From Alphaproteobacteria bacterium (lineage in GTDB: Bacteria; Pseudomonadota; Alphaproteobacteria; JAAXGF01), in the NCBI GenBank assembly GCA_963555825.3, contig CAUVXB020000002.1:1024001-1088000 (forward strand): DNA of 64,000 nucleotides, written 5' to 3'. The notes below the pieces were generated by a model that was given only the letters and a program-made list of their open reading frames with translations, was not told where the DNA came from and did not search any database. A program made the translations under genes and the position numbers. Shown one piece after another: positions 41,855-49,443 of the stretch (its first letter is position 1; every line of letters begins with the position of its first letter).

Positions 41855-42850
<996 letters not shown>

Positions 42851-43092
42851 ACGCGCGTTTACCGCAAATGGCCGGCGAACTCAACCAAGCGCCGTGCCGG
42901 ATAGTGTTTCCGTTTGAAACTTGACCTGGCCTGAAAGCACGAAGCGCACCCGCATGTCGGCTAATCGTCCGCAAGCGGTCATCGTTCTGGTGCGGCCGTT
43001 GAGTCCGGGTATAATGGGGTGGACGGCCCCACACGGCATCTAGGTGCCAGAAGTGGTAGCTGTTGGCTGATCACGTACAAAGGAGCCGTCCT

Positions 43093-44124
43093 ATGACCGA
43101 GGTTAACACGATCGGACTTGATCTTGCGAAGAACGTTTTCCAGGTTCACGGGGTCGATGTCTCAGGCGAGACCGTGATCCGCCGGCAACTGAGGCGCCGC
43201 CAGGTTGTGCCGTTCTTCAGCAAGCAGCCGGCTTGTCTGGTCGGTATCGAGGCCTGCGCGACGTCGCACCATTGGGCGCGGGAACTCGGGGCGCTTGGCC
43301 ATGAGGTGCGCATCATGCCGGCGGCTTACGTGAAGCCCTACGTCAAGCGCAACAAGAACGACGCGGCGGATGCCGAAGCGATCTGCGAAGCGGTAACGCG
43401 GCCATCGATGCGTTTCGTGGCGGTGAAGACGGCCGCGCAGCAGAGCGTGTTGATGGACCACCGGACGCGCGAACTCCTGGTTCGGCAGCGGACCATGCTG
43501 GTCAACGCGATCCGCGCGCACATGGCGGAGTTCGGGGTCGTCGCCCGGGTCGGGCTGCCGCAGGTGAAGGAACTCCTCGCGGTCATCGCTGATGAGGGCG
43601 ATGAGCGCATCCCGCCATTGGCACGAACATGCCTGGAAGGACTGGCGCGGCAGTTGCTGTCGCTGGAGCGCGAGATCACCACCACCGAGCAGCGCATTCA
43701 TGCCTGGCATCGGGCGAACCAGGTCAGCCAACGTCTGGCGACCATTCCCGGCATCGGACCGCTCACGGCGAGTGCGCTGGCGGCCTCGATCGCCGACCCT
43801 TCGGTGTTCAGATCGGGGCGTGAACTGGCGGCTTGGATCGGTCTGGTGCCCAGACAGATATCGACCGGCGGCAAGCAGCGGCTCGGCCGCATCTCAAAGG
43901 CGGGCGACCACTACCTCCGGTGGCTGCTCGTCGCCGGCGCCATGACGGTGATACGCCACGGGCGAAGATCAAACTTCGAGAAGAACCCTTGGCTGGGCGA
44001 TCTCATGGCGCGCAAATCGACCAAGCTCGCCGCCGTGGCGCTGGCCAACAAGAACGCACGAACCGCCTGGGCGCTGCTCGCCAACGGTGGAACCTACCGT
44101 CAGCCAGCAGTCACCGCCGCTTGA
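43093..44124 (+). CDS. IS110-family DEDD recombinase/transposase
   Basis: GLDLAK, GIEAC, KNDAADA, IPGIG, STGG. Confidence 0.95.
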   Translation: MTEVNTIGLDLAKNVFQVHGVDVSGETVIRRQLRRRQVVPFFSKQPACLVGIEACATSHHWARELGALGHEVRIMPAAYVKPYVKRNKNDAADAEAICEAVTRPSMRFVAVKTAAQQSVLMDHRTRELLVRQRTMLVNAIRAHMAEFGVVARVGLPQVKELLAVIADEGDERIPPLARTCLEGLARQLLSLEREITTTEQRIHAWHRANQVSQRLATIPGIGPLTASALAASIADPSVFRSGRELAAWIGLVPRQISTGGKQRLGRISKAGDHYLRWLLVAGAMTVIRHGRRSNFEKNPWLGDLMARKSTKLAAVALANKNARTAWALLANGGTYRQPAVTAA

Positions 44125-44137
44125 GACAGACGCCTTA

Positions 44138-45312
44138 TACCAGTGAGCCTATGAAATCACCTTCATGATCCATGGATAGGCGCAGAGGGTTCGCATACGA
44201 TCCGGTTCTGCGATGAGGTCGATCCATGCTTGGCAACAGGCGTCGATGATGGCCTCGGTGTCGTCGAGGACGCGGAGCGATAGGAAGCGTTCGCGTAGGT
44301 AGAGCCAAACCCGCTCGACGGGGTTGAGTTCGGGACTGTAAGGCGGCAACAGCGCCAAGGTGACGTTGTCGGGGACGGTGAGGGCGCGCTCGTCGTGCCA
44401 ACCGGCGCCGTCGCACATCATGACGGCGTGCGCATCCTGGTCCAGGGTATCGGCGAAGTGTGCGAGAAACAGGTCCATGACCTTGGCGTTGACGCTCGGC
44501 ATCACCAGGGTGACGTCGTCGCCGGTGTCCGGGCGCACGGCGGAGAAGATGTAGGCCCACTGGTAGCCGATTTGACGCGTCCCGGGGGCACGCTCGCCCC
44601 TGCGCCACCACCGGTGACACACCCGGCCCTTGTTGCCGACGCGCGCTTCATCCTGAAACCACAGCTGTAGGCGCTTGTCGGGATGCGCCGCGGCGGTCGC
44701 CTTCAGGATGTCGCGAAGCCCCCTTTTTTGAAGCGCTCCTGCGCTTCGGCGTCCCTTCGCGGGTGGCTCGGGCGCGCCTTCTGGCGGGAAAATCCCATCC
44801 GCCGTAGAACCCGGGTCATGCTCGAGGGGTGGTAGGTCTTGGCGAAGCGCTCCTCCAGCCAGCGGCACAGATCGGCCCGGGTCCAGGCGCAAACCCCGTC
44901 GCGCTCAGGCTCCGGCCCGGCGATGATGACCGCCGCCAGCGCCGCTTCCTCGTCTGCCGTCAGCCGCCGCGGCGAGTAGCCCTTTGGACGGTCGTGAAGC
45001 CCCTCCAATCCCTTTGCATTGTAACGAACAACCGCGTCGCGAAGCGTTTGGCGATCCATCCCCGCAAGCCGCGCGGCATCAGCCCGGGGCATCTCCTCCA
45101 AAGCATTCGCGATCCCATAGGCCCGCGCCGCCGCTCGACCGTACGATTCCACGCGAGCCCAGCGCCGAAGCTCCAAAGGCGTCAAATCATCCCGTATCTT
45201 GAGTGCTGATCCCATGACATCCCCCACATCTGGTGGGAGACCATAGAATCACAATCCGCCATCATCCGCCATCAATGAATATCCCGAGAGTCAATTCAGG
45301 CGCTCACTGGTA
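44138..45312 (-). mobile_element. IS630-family element (two-ORF, frameshifting type)
   Basis: TIR TACCAGTGAGC/GCTCACTGGTA; TTA on both sides (44135-37, 45313-15). Confidence 0.9.
44149..45215 (-). CDS. IS630 transposase (HTH ORF + DDE ORF joined by probable -1 frameshift)
   Basis: ORF1 HTH ends ERFKKGG; AAAAAAG slippery site at 44723-44729; ORF2 has FQDEARVG, CDGAGWH, LPPYSPELNPVE. Confidence 0.9.
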
Positions 45313-45319
45313 TTAAACC

Positions 45320-45500
45320 CTTTGGCAGGGTGATCGTGAGGTAATGCAAGACCGGTCGAATACCGGGGATCGGAGAAACCCGTCATGGCTAGGGAGCCTC
45401 GAGCTCGTGGGTTTAGTTGGGACCCGATCCCGCGGATCGCATTAGGGCCAGCGGTCAAGAGCACCGCATCAACAGGCCGGACACATAGCCGCACCCGACC
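45320..45500 (+). ncRNA. Predicted bridge/seek RNA of the IS1111-type element (boundaries approximate)
   Basis: Two stem-internal-loop domains (45366-45431, 45432-45492) whose loops match the reconstructed target and donor. Confidence 0.7.
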
Positions 45501-45526
45501 AACTTGCATGACCGTCAAAACAACCC

Positions 45527-45553
45527 TTGCCAAATCGGGGCCGTCCACACATA
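45527..45553 (+). promoter_or_regulatory. -35 half of a circle-junction promoter
   Basis: TTGCCA + 17 bp + CATAAT is formed only when the right end joins the left end through the ATA core. Confidence 0.65.
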
Positions 45554-45657
45554 GCCATGGGGGGTTATTCGGACGCACGCTAGATCTCCGATATTTCCCA
45601 AAATCAGGTTTGCGAGAGAGGCAACGGCTTCCATCGCTGGGATTGTTGCACCAACCC

Positions 45658-48600
45658 TCAAGTCAGGTCGTCGAGCAGGGCCTTAGCCTCTTTCAGATCG
45701 GTGGTGTCGAAGCCCTCGGTGAACCAGTCGTAGACCGGCGCGAGAAGGTCGCGGGCCTCCGACCGCTTGCCCTCGCCTTGCCACAGGCGCGCGAGGCCCA
45801 TAGCGGCGCGCAGCTCCAAGGACCTGGCGCTCTGGCCGAGGGCGATCTCGATGGCCTGCTTGAAGCAGGCTTCGGCCTCGCCGCCGTTGCCGTCCGAAAG
45901 CGACAGCAGCAGCACGCCCTTGAGGCGGTGAAGCTCGGCGTCCCAGAAGACAATTCCGTTGTCCTTGCTGGCGTCGAAGGCGTTCGCGAGGACCGTCATG
46001 CCCTCATCGGCCTGACCGGCCTGTGCGAGCAAATCGATGTAATAGCCCAGTGCATGGGGTTTTTCGTACGCGCGTCCCACCGCCCGCCAGGCCGCGAGCC
46101 CCTCGCGGATGCTGGCAATCGCTTCCTCGAGCCGGCCGCCACCGACCGCGGCCCAGCCATCGACGAACGCCGAGGTCGCGTGTTCCTGGGGGAAGCCATG
46201 CTCGCGCGTGATTTCGACGACCGCCTCGCCCAGCTCCTTCGCCATGTCGACCTCGCGGCGCAACTGGTAGGTCAGCGCGCCCTGCTCGAGGGCCAGCCCC
46301 AGGCTATGTGGATGGTGGATTCTGTGGGCAAGCTCGATTGCCTCGCCAACATGGGCGGCCGCCTGATCGGGATAGCCGAGCGCCCAGAGCGAATGAGCGG
46401 CGGTCGCGTGGCCGCAGACGCAGGGGTCATGCCCGCCGAACCGGAAGGTCTGAGCGTGGTGACGGCGAGCATCGTAGACCGCGATGGCTTGGCTCGTATG
46501 GTCTCGGCATGCGGCGAACTCGCCCAGGTAGAACCGGGTGGTCCATTGTGAGTGATGGGCCTGAAGGGAATATGCCGCGTCGTCCCGCCGTTGCGCCAGG
46601 TCGGACAACTCGTCGGCCAGCGCGAGCGCGCTCGGAATATCGCCGATAACGGTCCTGTATCGCCAAAGTCCCCACAGGGCGGCGAAGCGGTCCGCCGGCT
46701 CGCCGACGTCCCGGCACAGTGCGCGGGCCCGCGTATATGCGCGTTCCACCTCGGGTGCGCCGTCCCAATCAACCGACATGATTCCGACGCCAAGACCGAG
46801 CTGAATGGCGAGTTCCTGCCGCGCCCGGTCAGGCGTTTCGGGCAGGTCCTCTAGAAGCTCTAGTCCCCTGGTCAGGCTGCCCACCGCCTCGGCGTTCGCC
46901 AAGCGCTCGATGGCGCGCTGACCGGCACGCTGCCAATAGTCCACCGCCTGCTCGGTAAGGCCCGCCTCGGTGTAGTGATGGGCTAGTCGCTCGAACTGTT
47001 CGCCCGGGCGGCTGACGGACGCCGCCTCGATGTGCTCGGCGATGGCCTGGTGGAGCTTGCGGCGGCGCTCCCCAAGCAGACTGCCGTAGGCGACTTCGTA
47101 GGTCAGCGCGTGCTTGAAGGTGTATTCCGGGTCGGGGAACAGCCGCGTCTCGTAAACGAACTCGGCCGTCTGCAGTTCGCTCAACCCGCGCCGCAGCTCC
47201 TCCTCGGGCGTCTCGGCGATGGCCAGTAGCAGGTCGTAGGGCACGTCCTTGCCGATCACCGCCGCGGTCTGAAGCAGCCGCTTGTTGTCGGCCGGCAGGC
47301 GGTCGATGCGCGCCGCCAGAACGCCCTGCACTGTCGCCGGTACTTCGACAGTGGCGGCCTCGTCCGTCAGTTGGTAGGCCCCCGGCGCGCCGCTGAGTAT
47401 CCCCGCCTCGACCAGGGTGCGCACGCTCTCCTCGAGGAAGAACGGGTTGCCCGCGGTGCGCTCGATCAGGGTCTCCCTGAGCGGCGCCAGCGCGGCGTCC
47501 TCGCCCAGCATGGCCACCAGCAGCTCGTCGGCGCTTTCCGCCGGCAGCGGGTCGATGCGGCGCTGGCTGTAGAACGTCTTGCTGCCCCAGCCGTGGCTGT
47601 ATTCGGGACGGTAGTTGGCGAGCAGCAGAATGCGCGACGCCGGCAGGCTCTCGACCAGGCTGTCGAGGAACACCTGGGTCTCGCCGTCGATCCAGTGCAG
47701 GTCCTCGAAGACCACGGCCAAGGGCTGCACGGCGCTCTCCCTGAGCAGCAGGGTCTTGACCGCGTCCAGCGTCCGGCGCCGGTGCTGGGAGGGATCGAGC
47801 GCCTGCCAGGCCTCATCGTCCACGGCGACGTCGAACAGGGTGAGGAAGGGCGTAAGCAGCGGCTTCAGGCCCTCGTCCAGGGTCAGCAGCTTGCCGGTGA
47901 CCTTCTCGCGAATCTGCCGGGCGTCGTCGCGGCCCTCGATGCGGAAGTAGGCCTTGAGCAGGTCGATGATCGGCAGATAGGCCGTCGCCTTGCCGTAGGA
48001 CACCGAACCGCTTTCCAGGACCAGCCAGCCCTCGGTTCGGTGGGAATGGGTGAACTCGTAGAACAGGCGCGACTTGCCGACACCGGCCTCGCCGATCACG
48101 GCGACGATCTGGCCGTCGCCGCCGCCGGCCCGGTCGAGCGCCCGCCCCAGGGCCTCGATTTCGGTCTGGCGCCCGATGAACCGGCTGAGCCCGCGCGCCA
48201 AGGCGGCCTGGAAGCGCGTCCGCACGGTCGTCGCGCCGGTCAGCTCGAAGACCTCGATGGGCGCCTCCAGCCCCTTGACCGGGATCGGACCGAGCCCGTT
48301 CACCTGAACGAACCCCTCGGCGAGCTGCAGCGTATCGCCGGTAATCCGGATGGTGCCGGGAACCGCGAGCTGTTCCATCCGGCCCGCGAGATGCGTCGTC
48401 TCGCCGATGGCGTCGTAGTCCATCGTCAGGTCGTTGCCGATGGCCCGCACCACCACCTCGCCCGAGTTGAGCCCGACCCGGACTTGCATTTCGACGCCGT
48501 GCGTCCGGCGAACCTCTTCGGCGCTGCGGTGGATGGCGTCCTGCATGGCGAGCGCGGCGTAGCATGCGCGCACTGCGTGGTCCTCGTGGGCCAGTGGCGC

Positions 48601-49038
48601 GCCGAACAGTGCCATGATGCCGTCGCCCAGCACCTTATTGACCGTGCCTTCGTAGCGGTGCACCGCCTCCATCATGGTGCGGATCGCCGAATCGAGCAGC
48701 TCATGGACGCGTTCGGGGTCGCTACCCCGGATCAGCTCGAGCGAACCCTGGATGTCGGCGAACAGCACGGTGACCTGCTTGCGCTCACCCTCGACTGCAT
48801 CCCGGGCGGTGCGGATGCGGTCGGCAAGGTGCTGGGGCGTGTAGGACTGGGGCGCGGCGAAACTGGCCCGGCCGGTCGGCTCGGCCCCGGCGAGCTCGGT
48901 GCCGCAGTCGCCGCAGAACCGTGAATTGGAAGGGTTGGCATGGCCGCAGGACGGACAGGTCTTGTCGAGGGGCGCGCCGCAACCCCCGCAGAACCGATTA
49001 TCGTCCGGGTTCTCGAACTGGCACCTGGGACACTCCAA
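45658..49038 (-). CDS. Double zinc ribbon + class III nucleotide cyclase + AAA/STAND-like ATPase + TPR protein
   Basis: CPRC/CGGC/CPSC/CGDC, FADIQGS, GDG, GEAGVGKS, FEDLHW, GNPFF, SLELRAA; TTG start inferred. Confidence 0.9.
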   Translation of the reverse strand: MECPRCQFENPDDNRFCGGCGAPLDKTCPSCGHANPSNSRFCGDCGTELAGAEPTGRASFAAPQSYTPQHLADRIRTARDAVEGERKQVTVLFADIQGSLELIRGSDPERVHELLDSAIRTMMEAVHRYEGTVNKVLGDGIMALFGAPLAHEDHAVRACYAALAMQDAIHRSAEEVRRTHGVEMQVRVGLNSGEVVVRAIGNDLTMDYDAIGETTHLAGRMEQLAVPGTIRITGDTLQLAEGFVQVNGLGPIPVKGLEAPIEVFELTGATTVRTRFQAALARGLSRFIGRQTEIEALGRALDRAGGGDGQIVAVIGEAGVGKSRLFYEFTHSHRTEGWLVLESGSVSYGKATAYLPIIDLLKAYFRIEGRDDARQIREKVTGKLLTLDEGLKPLLTPFLTLFDVAVDDEAWQALDPSQHRRRTLDAVKTLLLRESAVQPLAVVFEDLHWIDGETQVFLDSLVESLPASRILLLANYRPEYSHGWGSKTFYSQRRIDPLPAESADELLVAMLGEDAALAPLRETLIERTAGNPFFLEESVRTLVEAGILSGAPGAYQLTDEAATVEVPATVQGVLAARIDRLPADNKRLLQTAAVIGKDVPYDLLLAIAETPEEELRRGLSELQTAEFVYETRLFPDPEYTFKHALTYEVAYGSLLGERRRKLHQAIAEHIEAASVSRPGEQFERLAHHYTEAGLTEQAVDYWQRAGQRAIERLANAEAVGSLTRGLELLEDLPETPDRARQELAIQLGLGVGIMSVDWDGAPEVERAYTRARALCRDVGEPADRFAALWGLWRYRTVIGDIPSALALADELSDLAQRRDDAAYSLQAHHSQWTTRFYLGEFAACRDHTSQAIAVYDARRHHAQTFRFGGHDPCVCGHATAAHSLWALGYPDQAAAHVGEAIELAHRIHHPHSLGLALEQGALTYQLRREVDMAKELGEAVVEITREHGFPQEHATSAFVDGWAAVGGGRLEEAIASIREGLAAWRAVGRAYEKPHALGYYIDLLAQAGQADEGMTVLANAFDASKDNGIVFWDAELHRLKGVLLLSLSDGNGGEAEACFKQAIEIALGQSARSLELRAAMGLARLWQGEGKRSEARDLLAPVYDWFTEGFDTTDLKEAKALLDDLT

Positions 49039-49443
49039 AGCCGCCGTTCCCCGCTCCTTTTGGTTGTTGCGGCAAGGGTGCACCAAAAGCGATGTACTGG
49101 CTAGGGCGCATGCCCCAAGCGGCTTGGGCCTATCAATCCATTGGACGAGTGATCTAATACGCTCGACAGCGACGGCGCCTAATCAACTCGGATTCGGACG
49201 TCGAAAGTCGTCGTTGGTGACGCGCACCTGTCAGTCTGCTCTATCAGGCAAAACTCCGCTTCGGGTCTACCATCGAAATTCAACAGCGGCTGTGCCGATG
49301 ACCGCGCGCCAACGTCTGATGTCGCACGCAACGCAAACATAATCCGCTAAAAGGCCGACGTTCCGGGCGTTGTTTCGACTGAATTTCAAACTGAGACACT
49401 ACACCGTGCCGGATCCGGCATCGGCGCCACGGCGCGGGCCGCG

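Follow-up and report, generated by a model that had tools for sequence, protein, structure and literature searches.

The window, by which we mean the whole 64-kb stretch of alphaproteobacterial DNA that was analysed (G000:C2:1024001-1088000), carries at positions 43014-45551 an insertion sequence composed of an intact recombinase gene (tnp), a long non-coding right end that holds a putative guide-RNA gene, and, between these two, a second insertion sequence of the IS630 family, without which the host element measures about 1359 bp. This element very probably is a member of the IS1111 group of the IS110 family, that is, a DEDD recombinase gene accompanied by a structured two-domain RNA gene of ~145 nt in its long right non-coding end, with loops that read as guides for the target and the donor, and with a cycle that would follow, by analogy, those of IS621 and ISEc11. 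That IS110/IS1111 elements find their targets with the help of a guide RNA has been established since 2024 (PMC11208160; PMC11187229), and a bridge RNA was predicted in 93.0% of the catalogued IS1111 elements in the same work. The kind of family is already known, under the names of bridge RNA and seekRNA systems, and the element adds another representative to it. It is also biologically ordinary, in a genome rich in insertion sequences where this very copy, called c1 hereafter, is the landing site of another one.

The recombinase has an N-terminal DEDD_Tnp_IS110 domain (PF01548, residues 7-146, E 1.1e-12, 48.4 bits against a cut-off of 29) and a C-terminal Transposase_20 domain (PF02371, E 1.1e-27), and it is similar in its C-terminal part to the solved structures of IS621 (8wt6, E 3.6e-7) and ISCro4 (9t56, E 5e-7). 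Its GLVPRQISTG segment aligns with the serine-containing GLTPRRYESG of IS621 and fits GL-P----(S/T)G, the motif defined for the IS1111 group in PMC11187229. The closest annotated proteins in a search of a plasmid collection were at most 63% identical and were labelled only "IS110 family transposase", and a protein cluster look-up returned uninformative names; this element, or one close to it, may already stand in the catalogues of the two 2024 papers.

The ends of the element are equally typical of the group. The left junction reads GTCCGGGT-ATA-ATGGGG (43003-43019) and the right junction CCACAC-ATA-GCCATGG (45545-45560), with perfect 12-bp subterminal inverted repeats, GTGGACGGCCCC at 43019-43030 pairing with GGGGCCGTCCAC at 45537-45548, that leave terminal extensions of 5 nt on the left and 3 nt on the right. 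Subterminal inverted repeats of 7-17 bp are the range of the IS1111 group (PMC11208160), and a left repeat of the TGGACGG type also pairs with the right end in most of the relatives considered here, which are 80 loci in other genomes with recombinase identities of 50-76%. The left end is short, with 79 nt, and the right end comes to about 248 nt once the nested IS630-family element and one TTA are subtracted.

The left part of the element has 33 matches in the genome, and the copies fall into three groups. Group A contains five copies with identities of at least 98%, namely the window copy c1, the uninterrupted c2 (C2:1017033-1018393) and c3 (C2:1013043-1014401), c4 (C2:2450450-2452987), which carries an IS630-family element, and c5 (G000:C2:525397-530212), which carries one as well and has two breaks in its left end. 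This left end of c5 lies in three pieces about 1.1-1.2 kb apart, with overlaps of 2 and 8 bases between their matches to c1, and from these overlaps the breaks may be read as two additional insertions that duplicated 2 bp and 8 bp. Group B contains seven full-length copies and one partial copy (77% DNA identity to A), and group C six copies (71% DNA identity to A); the three subfamilies differ in their core dinucleotide (TA, TG and AG for A, B and C) and in their guides, and their flanks match. The tnp frame is open in all five group-A copies, with 4-6 residues of difference from c1 in the other four.

The group-A left junctions are ATA, TTA, ATA, GTA and ATA, and the right junctions are all ATA. 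Because the left junctions vary (TTA, GTA) while the right one stays ATA, the shared core is the dinucleotide TA (43012-43013 on the left and 45552-45553 on the right), and the ATA core proposed in the initial annotation is one base too long. All five copies are inserted at TA-GCC, with right flanks TAGCCATG in three copies, TAGCCGAG in one and TAGCCAAT in another, so insertion is oriented, site-specific and with a duplication limited to the shared core (each of the five copies has TA at its two junctions and GCC to the right), as in the IS1111 group. The left flanks of c1, c4 and c5 are one dispersed repeat of ~60-110 bp (...GCGGTCATCGTTC.GGTGCGGCC.TTGAGTCCGGGTGTA), represented in the window at 42898-43011 and ending in GAGTCC(G/A)GGT(A/G)-TA; Rfam gave no match in the window copy of this repeat. 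Twelve further matches to the left flank exist in the genome, and the 11 repeat sites among the matches listed comprise three with group-A copies, two with the group-C copies g1 and g2, which lie 11 nt beyond a repeat copy, and six that are empty. The empty repeat copies end in ...GTA-GCC.., ...GGA-GCC.., ...TCA-GCC.. or ...GTA-AGC.., most of them continuing with GCC and one reading GTA-GCCAAG. This distribution identifies the end of the repeat as the predicted natural target of the element, and repeat-end targeting is usual for the IS1111 family (PMC11187229).

Aligned right ends of groups A, B and C show conserved stems with variable loop strands between them. The first domain of the putative RNA is closed by GGGATCGG (45366-45373) with CCGATCCC (45424-45431), and an outer stem pairs GGTCG (45354-45358) with CGACC (45496-45500). 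A covariance model, R1, built from nine in-genome sequences on a hand-drawn structure of 28 pairs, has 37 matches in the whole genome and 82 in 78 of the 80 relatives' loci, of which 81 are on the tnp strand, usually about 80-110 nt past the end of tnp. In the model-fitted alignment of the relatives 93.2% of the cells at paired positions do pair, against 26.7-40.4% when the partners are slid by 1-3 columns, both sides have changed in 18 of the 28 pairs, and none of 500 shuffles reaches the observed values, with these counts leaning toward the modelled structure because the alignment was fitted to it. Independently of the model, RNAalifold applied to a MAFFT alignment of 22 extended sequences recovered the same six helices plus the closing stem, with 15 of 30 pairs compensatory.

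Across the relatives, all four guide strands covary with the flanks and the ends. The ends of the relatives were set from the conserved repeat motifs TGGA(C/T)G and TCCA, independently of the RNA; this motif anchoring replaced a first automatic inverted-repeat search, which was dropped after choosing unrelated repeats in some loci. The target-guide test used the 63 of 82 rows that have both flanks, equivalent to 53 distinct guide pairs, and left out 19 in which one flank or the typical left-end head is missing. The 3' strand of domain 1 agrees with the seven bases left of the core at 4.53 of 7 positions, compared with 2.11 after permutation (standard deviation 0.18), and the reverse complement of the 5' strand agrees with the six bases right of the core at 3.91 of 6, compared with 1.95 (standard deviation 0.15), the latter being an underestimate because the fixed register used for scoring is shifted by one base for some of the relatives and for group C. 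The two bases that follow the core in the 3' strand of domain 2 agree with the first two of the right target at 1.67 of 2 (1.11 permuted), which mirrors the handshake guides described for IS621 (PMC13626964), and in each of these three comparisons no permutation out of 2000 reached the observed value. As for the donor, the 3' strand of domain 2 equals the last five right-end bases in 67 of 67 rows (variants ATACA, ACACA and ACATA), and in 68 of 74 rows the left end opens with the four bases called for by the 5' strand of the same domain (ATGG, ATGT and ATGC).

In the window copy itself, the right-target guide fits at six of six positions plus the core, and the 3' donor guide ACACATA is exact and is followed by GC, equal to the start of the right target in a handshake-like manner. 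The right flanks of the five group-A copies fit their own guides at 6, 6, 5, 5 and 5 of 6 positions (27 of 30 in total), CATGGCTA being particular to c1 and c5 while c2, c3 and c4 carry CTTGGCTA. The guides follow the order published for IS1111 seekRNAs, in which the match to the top strand comes first, on the 5' side, then the one to the bottom strand, and the two overlap at the core (PMC11187229). We suggest keeping in mind that CATGGCTA occurs three times in the 64-kb window on both strands (the guide, the target itself and one unrelated site) compared with a shuffle mean of 0.62, so that this match is merely suggestive when taken alone, and GGGT is trivial when taken alone; the significance therefore comes from the relatives. 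For the same reason that the 8-mer is not decisively rare, and given the weak left-side matches of several copies, it might be argued that the guide matches are coincidental, that the protein itself recognises the genomic repeat and that the RNA is a scaffold or an unrelated conserved element. We consider this explanation very improbable, since the four loop strands covary over 53-54 distinct guide sets with no permutation reaching the observed agreement, and since three subfamilies in the same genome have different guides and occupy different sites.

Several observations nevertheless weigh against the reading of the right end as a guide RNA fitted to its own target and donor, besides the fitting of the alignment to the model already mentioned. 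Single-sequence fold energies are no better than those of shuffles (z = -0.93 and -0.80), so the structure stands on the comparative evidence; the minimum-energy fold pairs parts of both target-guide strands with each other; and an Rfam scan of 42500-46000 with E values up to 1 gave no relevant family, returning just a chance-level snoRNA match on the opposite strand. The left-target guide of c1 fits at four of seven positions plus the core (GGGTTTA against GGGTATA), and in every group-A copy the fourth base of the left end disagrees with the 5' donor guide, an ATGC-type guide facing an ATGG end. On the left side, c3 and c4 agree with their own guides at two and one of seven positions, respectively, and the left flank of c3 fits better (five of seven) the guide of c4, which is B-like with a TA core. 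In group B, b4 is the only copy whose right flank fits its guide well, and that of b6 fits the guide of b7 instead of its own, while the group-C copies g3 and g4, whose right-target guides differ by one base, each have the right flank that suits the other's guide. The difference between such siblings is confined to one guide strand. RNAs acting in trans between siblings, or exchange between copies, would explain these mismatched flanks. A simple hexamer scan of 42900-45700 for a sigma-70-like promoter found none.

Taking both sides together, the proposal of the initial annotation of an IS1111-type element with a two-loop RNA in its 3' non-coding end agrees with the domains, the ends and the covariance model; every motif that it quoted is in place, GGGT (45409-45412) and ACACATA (45481-45487) included; and its reading of the loop strands against the element's own target and donor follows the published seekRNA arrangement. 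Its pairing of the donor guides with both donor halves holds exactly for ACACATA and, in the 5' guide, over CATTA but not at the next position (ATGC against ATGG), and that of the target guides holds in full on the right but at only four of seven positions plus the core on the left. The check that it recommended on the flanks of other copies was favourable at the right-target positions of the five copies and poor on the left side of c3 and c4. Every defining feature of the IS1111 group and of a bridge or seek RNA that lends itself to a check at the sequence level is found in this element, and the comparison supports the view that, in this IS1111 clade, the left-side guide would tolerate several mismatches and retargeting would need changes in both loops.

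The nested IS630-family element, overlooked when the locus was described as a complete recombinase-RNA-target set, measures 1176 bp and lies on the minus strand at 44137-45312, between tnp and the RNA gene and 12 nt past the tnp stop, inside a TTA duplication; the uninterrupted c2 and c3 read GACGCC-TTA-AACCC at this site. The genome has 65 full-length copies of this IS630-family element, with a 3-bp TWA duplication and a palindromic flank consensus GTC-TWA-GAC, and in three of the five group-A copies (c1, c4 and c5) it has entered at the identical TTA. This identity of site would be expected if the 2.5-kb composite of the IS1111-type element and its insert were the mobile unit, spread as such to three places. 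We regard such a spread as improbable: the nested element of c1 is inverted relative to those of c4 and c5, therefore at least two independent insertions took place; c4 and c5 share the orientation, yet their right ends are only ~90% alike, with tnp at 97.0%; and the site GCC-TTA-AAC resembles the consensus of the 65 copies, so that a hotspot suffices to explain the coincidence.

A more serious alternative, compatible with the family assignment and disputing only the "complete set", is that c1 is a non-autonomous or disabled relic, in which the IS630-family element uncouples the RNA gene from tnp transcription and which moves only with RNA, and perhaps protein, from c2 or c3. The position of this antisense insert of 1.18 kb, 12 nt past the tnp stop, and the failure to find a promoter-like site in 42900-45700 point in that direction, and both make the autonomy of c1 doubtful. 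So does the literature on its relatives, given that in ISEc11 the promoter of the circle junction is the only one found and the seekRNA derives from a long transcript (PMC11187229), and that excision of IS621 requires transcription through the element (PMC13626964). Against the relic stand the intact tnp frame, both ends and both flanks of c1, the action in trans of the non-coding region of ISEc11 (PMC11187229), the recombination of IS621 in vitro still supported by long read-through transcripts (PMC13626964), and the fact that a hexamer scan cannot exclude a promoter, for example an outward one in the IS630 end. We give the relic somewhat less than an even chance, and we judge in the same measure, just short of evens, that c1 is unable to supply its own RNA; c1 probably relies on read-through transcription or on RNA provided in trans by the uninterrupted copies.

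Contigs from RNA libraries (four runs from three studies), which cannot prove transcription, transcript ends or binding, cover the IS630-family element by far best, at depths of 80-640 compared with 3-60 in the rest of the stretch. In one study a contig joins 44134 to 45313, that is, the 3' end of tnp to the right end of a c2-type copy, which is compatible with co-transcription in the uninterrupted copies, and the RNA region is covered only from such c2-type copies, at depths of 3-9. No contig has the c1/c5 guide variant over 45322-45515, which shows neither presence nor absence of expression; none crosses the junction of the IS630-family element with the RNA gene in c1, which is uninformative on expression either way; and none contains the circle junction, which is not evidence of its absence. 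The parts of the junction promoter quoted in the initial annotation are present, with TTGCCA at 45527-45532, a spacer of 17 nt and then CATAAT, which would form across a circle junction. In the relatives, a TTGC-type hexamer lies at the same offset in most of 50 distinct ends, and the -10 hexamer of the junction is CATGAT in 35 of the 50 and TATGAT in nine.

With the element read as an IS1111-type recombinase with its bridge or seek RNA, the following cycle can be proposed by analogy. In domain 1, CATGGCTA would pair with the top strand of TA-GCCATG, and GGGTTTA with the bottom strand of GGGTATA, and the donor guides of domain 2 would be arranged likewise against the joined ends ...ACACA-TA-ATG... 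The complex of recombinase and RNA would excise the element as a circle, as in IS621 and ISEc11, the circle junction would create the promoter TTGCCA-N17-CATAAT, and the complex would then insert the circle at the TA of sites like GGGT(A/G)-TA-GCCA(T/A)G, which here are the ends of the dispersed repeat. We infer from the same known elements the expression of the RNA, its binding by the protein, the formation of the circle and the activity of the system. The coordinates of all parts are collected in Table 1.

Table 1. Parts of the IS1111-type element c1 and of its immediate flanks, in window coordinates
Feature	Position	Strand	Basis or match
Left target, end of the dispersed genomic repeat (...GAGTCCGGGT(A/G)), supplying the left target half	42898..43011	+	genomic matches
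Core TA, left copy	43012..43013	+	junctions of five copies
Left end, 79 nt: extension ATGGG 43014-43018, inverted repeat GTGGACGGCCCC 43019-43030	43014..43092	+	sequence, relatives
Transposase/recombinase gene, 343 residues, intact	43093..44124	+	Pfam, structure homologues
Nested IS630-family element with helix-turn-helix (HTH) and DDE_3 open reading frames; TTA duplication 44134-44136 and 45313-45315	44137..45312	-	Pfam, genomic copies
Putative bridge/seek RNA gene; domains for target 45366-45431 and for donor 45432-45492	45354..45500	+	covariance model, RNAalifold
Target guide, 5' strand, CATGGCTA	45384..45391	+	complementary to top strand TA-GCCATG (core and right target)
Target guide, 3' strand, GGGTTTA	45409..45415	+	same sense as top strand GGGTATA (left target and core), 6/7
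Donor guide, 5' strand, CATTA	45440..45444	+	complementary to TA-ATG (core and start of left end)
Donor guide, 3' strand, ACACATA then GC	45481..45489	+	right-end tail and core; GC equals first two right-target bases
-35-like hexamer TTGCCA	45527..45532	+	candidate junction promoter with 17-nt spacer and CATAAT
Right inverted repeat GGGGCCGTCCAC 45537-45548 and 3-nt extension ACA	45537..45551	+	sequence, copies, relatives
Core TA (right copy) and right target GCCATG	45552..45559	+	right flanks of five copies

The element is intergenic, between a gene for a bifunctional riboflavin kinase/FAD synthetase (41855-42850, minus strand) and a gene for a protein of 1142 residues (45658-49086, minus strand) with a double zinc ribbon, an adenylate/guanylate cyclase domain and AAA_16, plus a weak match to a MalT-like tetratricopeptide repeat under the Pfam cut-off.

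Elsewhere in the genome, the right ends of these elements also form arrays. Beside the group-B copy b1, 15 right ends lie in tandem within 2 kb (G000:C2:2097600-2099660), three of them full 296-bp RNA-gene units, and there are similar arrays at C1:169597-170053 and C1:2233730-2234566. The array joints are all at the core TG, and the three recurrent ones that were read lie after GCTTCTG (the 3' end of tnp), GCTTATG (in the DNA of the left-target guide) and CTCTTG (near the right end). Recombination directed by the guides at pseudo-targets, among them the guide gene of the element itself, would leave arrays of this appearance. Two of the relatives, L071 (2618-3441) and L061 (2612-2968), have two or three tandem R1 matches downstream of a single tnp, and right-end arrays are therefore not unique to this genome. 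Elements of groups A and B are also found tail to tail: between b4 and c5 only TGGCTA separates the two right ends (G000:C2:524031-530212), and next to c2 lies what remains of a B-like right end, in inverted orientation (C2:1017000-1017033). The right junction of each type, on the other strand, resembles the core and right target of the other type, which would account for this placement. We put forward, as a tentative idea with less in its favour than against it, that the genome is a natural record of guide-RNA-directed recombination beyond simple transposition, with trans-acting sibling RNAs, the guide gene serving as a pseudo-target and tail-to-tail insertion of A and B; were this the case, the flanks with sibling guides, the arrays and the tail-to-tail pairs would give rules for off-target and self-target recombination in vivo of the IS1111-type bridge systems.

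RNA-guided IS110/IS1111 recombinases are under development as programmable tools for DNA insertion, and the present element is a further set of recombinase, RNA and target with a TA core. To call it a candidate programmable ortholog, as the initial annotation did, is reasonable but does not set it apart, since 78 of the 80 relatives' loci contain the same RNA. The clade of about 80 relatives, in which all four guide strands and a handshake-like dinucleotide can be compared with the flanks, is worth more than a single element, and the same holds for the oddities within this genome.

Compared with the IS1111 elements ISEc11, ISKpn4 and ISPa11 (Siddiquee et al. 2024, PMC11187229), the element shares the size range of the recombinase (330-350 residues) and its GL-P----(S/T)G motif, inverted repeats set back from the termini by short extensions, a long non-coding stretch following tnp, an RNA in which the match to the top strand lies on the 5' side of that to the bottom strand and overlaps it in the target, a circle-junction promoter, here a predicted one, and a target that is repeated in the genome. 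It differs from them in its guides, in its target GGGT(A/G)-TA-GCCA.., in its host and in being known from sequence alone. The donor-binding domain and the handshake-like dinucleotide, deduced here from covariation, were not found described for these three elements in the available excerpts of PMC11187229.

With IS621 (Durrant et al. 2024, PMC11208160; PMC13626964) the element has in common the two loops, for target and donor, with one guide per strand around a dinucleotide core, the post-core dinucleotides that match the exchanged partner (PMC13626964), and the homologous C-terminal domain of the recombinase, where only residues 203-332 of the query align with 8wt6. In contrast, IS621 has its RNA upstream of the gene, within the left end, and the present element has it in the right end; the inverted repeats are long here, with 12 bp; and the core is TA instead of the CT of IS621 (PMC13626964). 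Finally, ISPpu9 and ISPpu10 of Pseudomonas putida (PMC12288879) are likewise IS110-family elements located in dispersed repeats, with separate tnp and small-RNA modules and with extra solo RNA modules; the small RNA of ISPpu9 has been reported as unnecessary for transposition (PMC12288879), unlike the role proposed for the RNA here, and, compared with the solo modules of ISPpu9 and ISPpu10, the extra modules in the present genome are the tandem right-end arrays beside group-B copies, outside the window.

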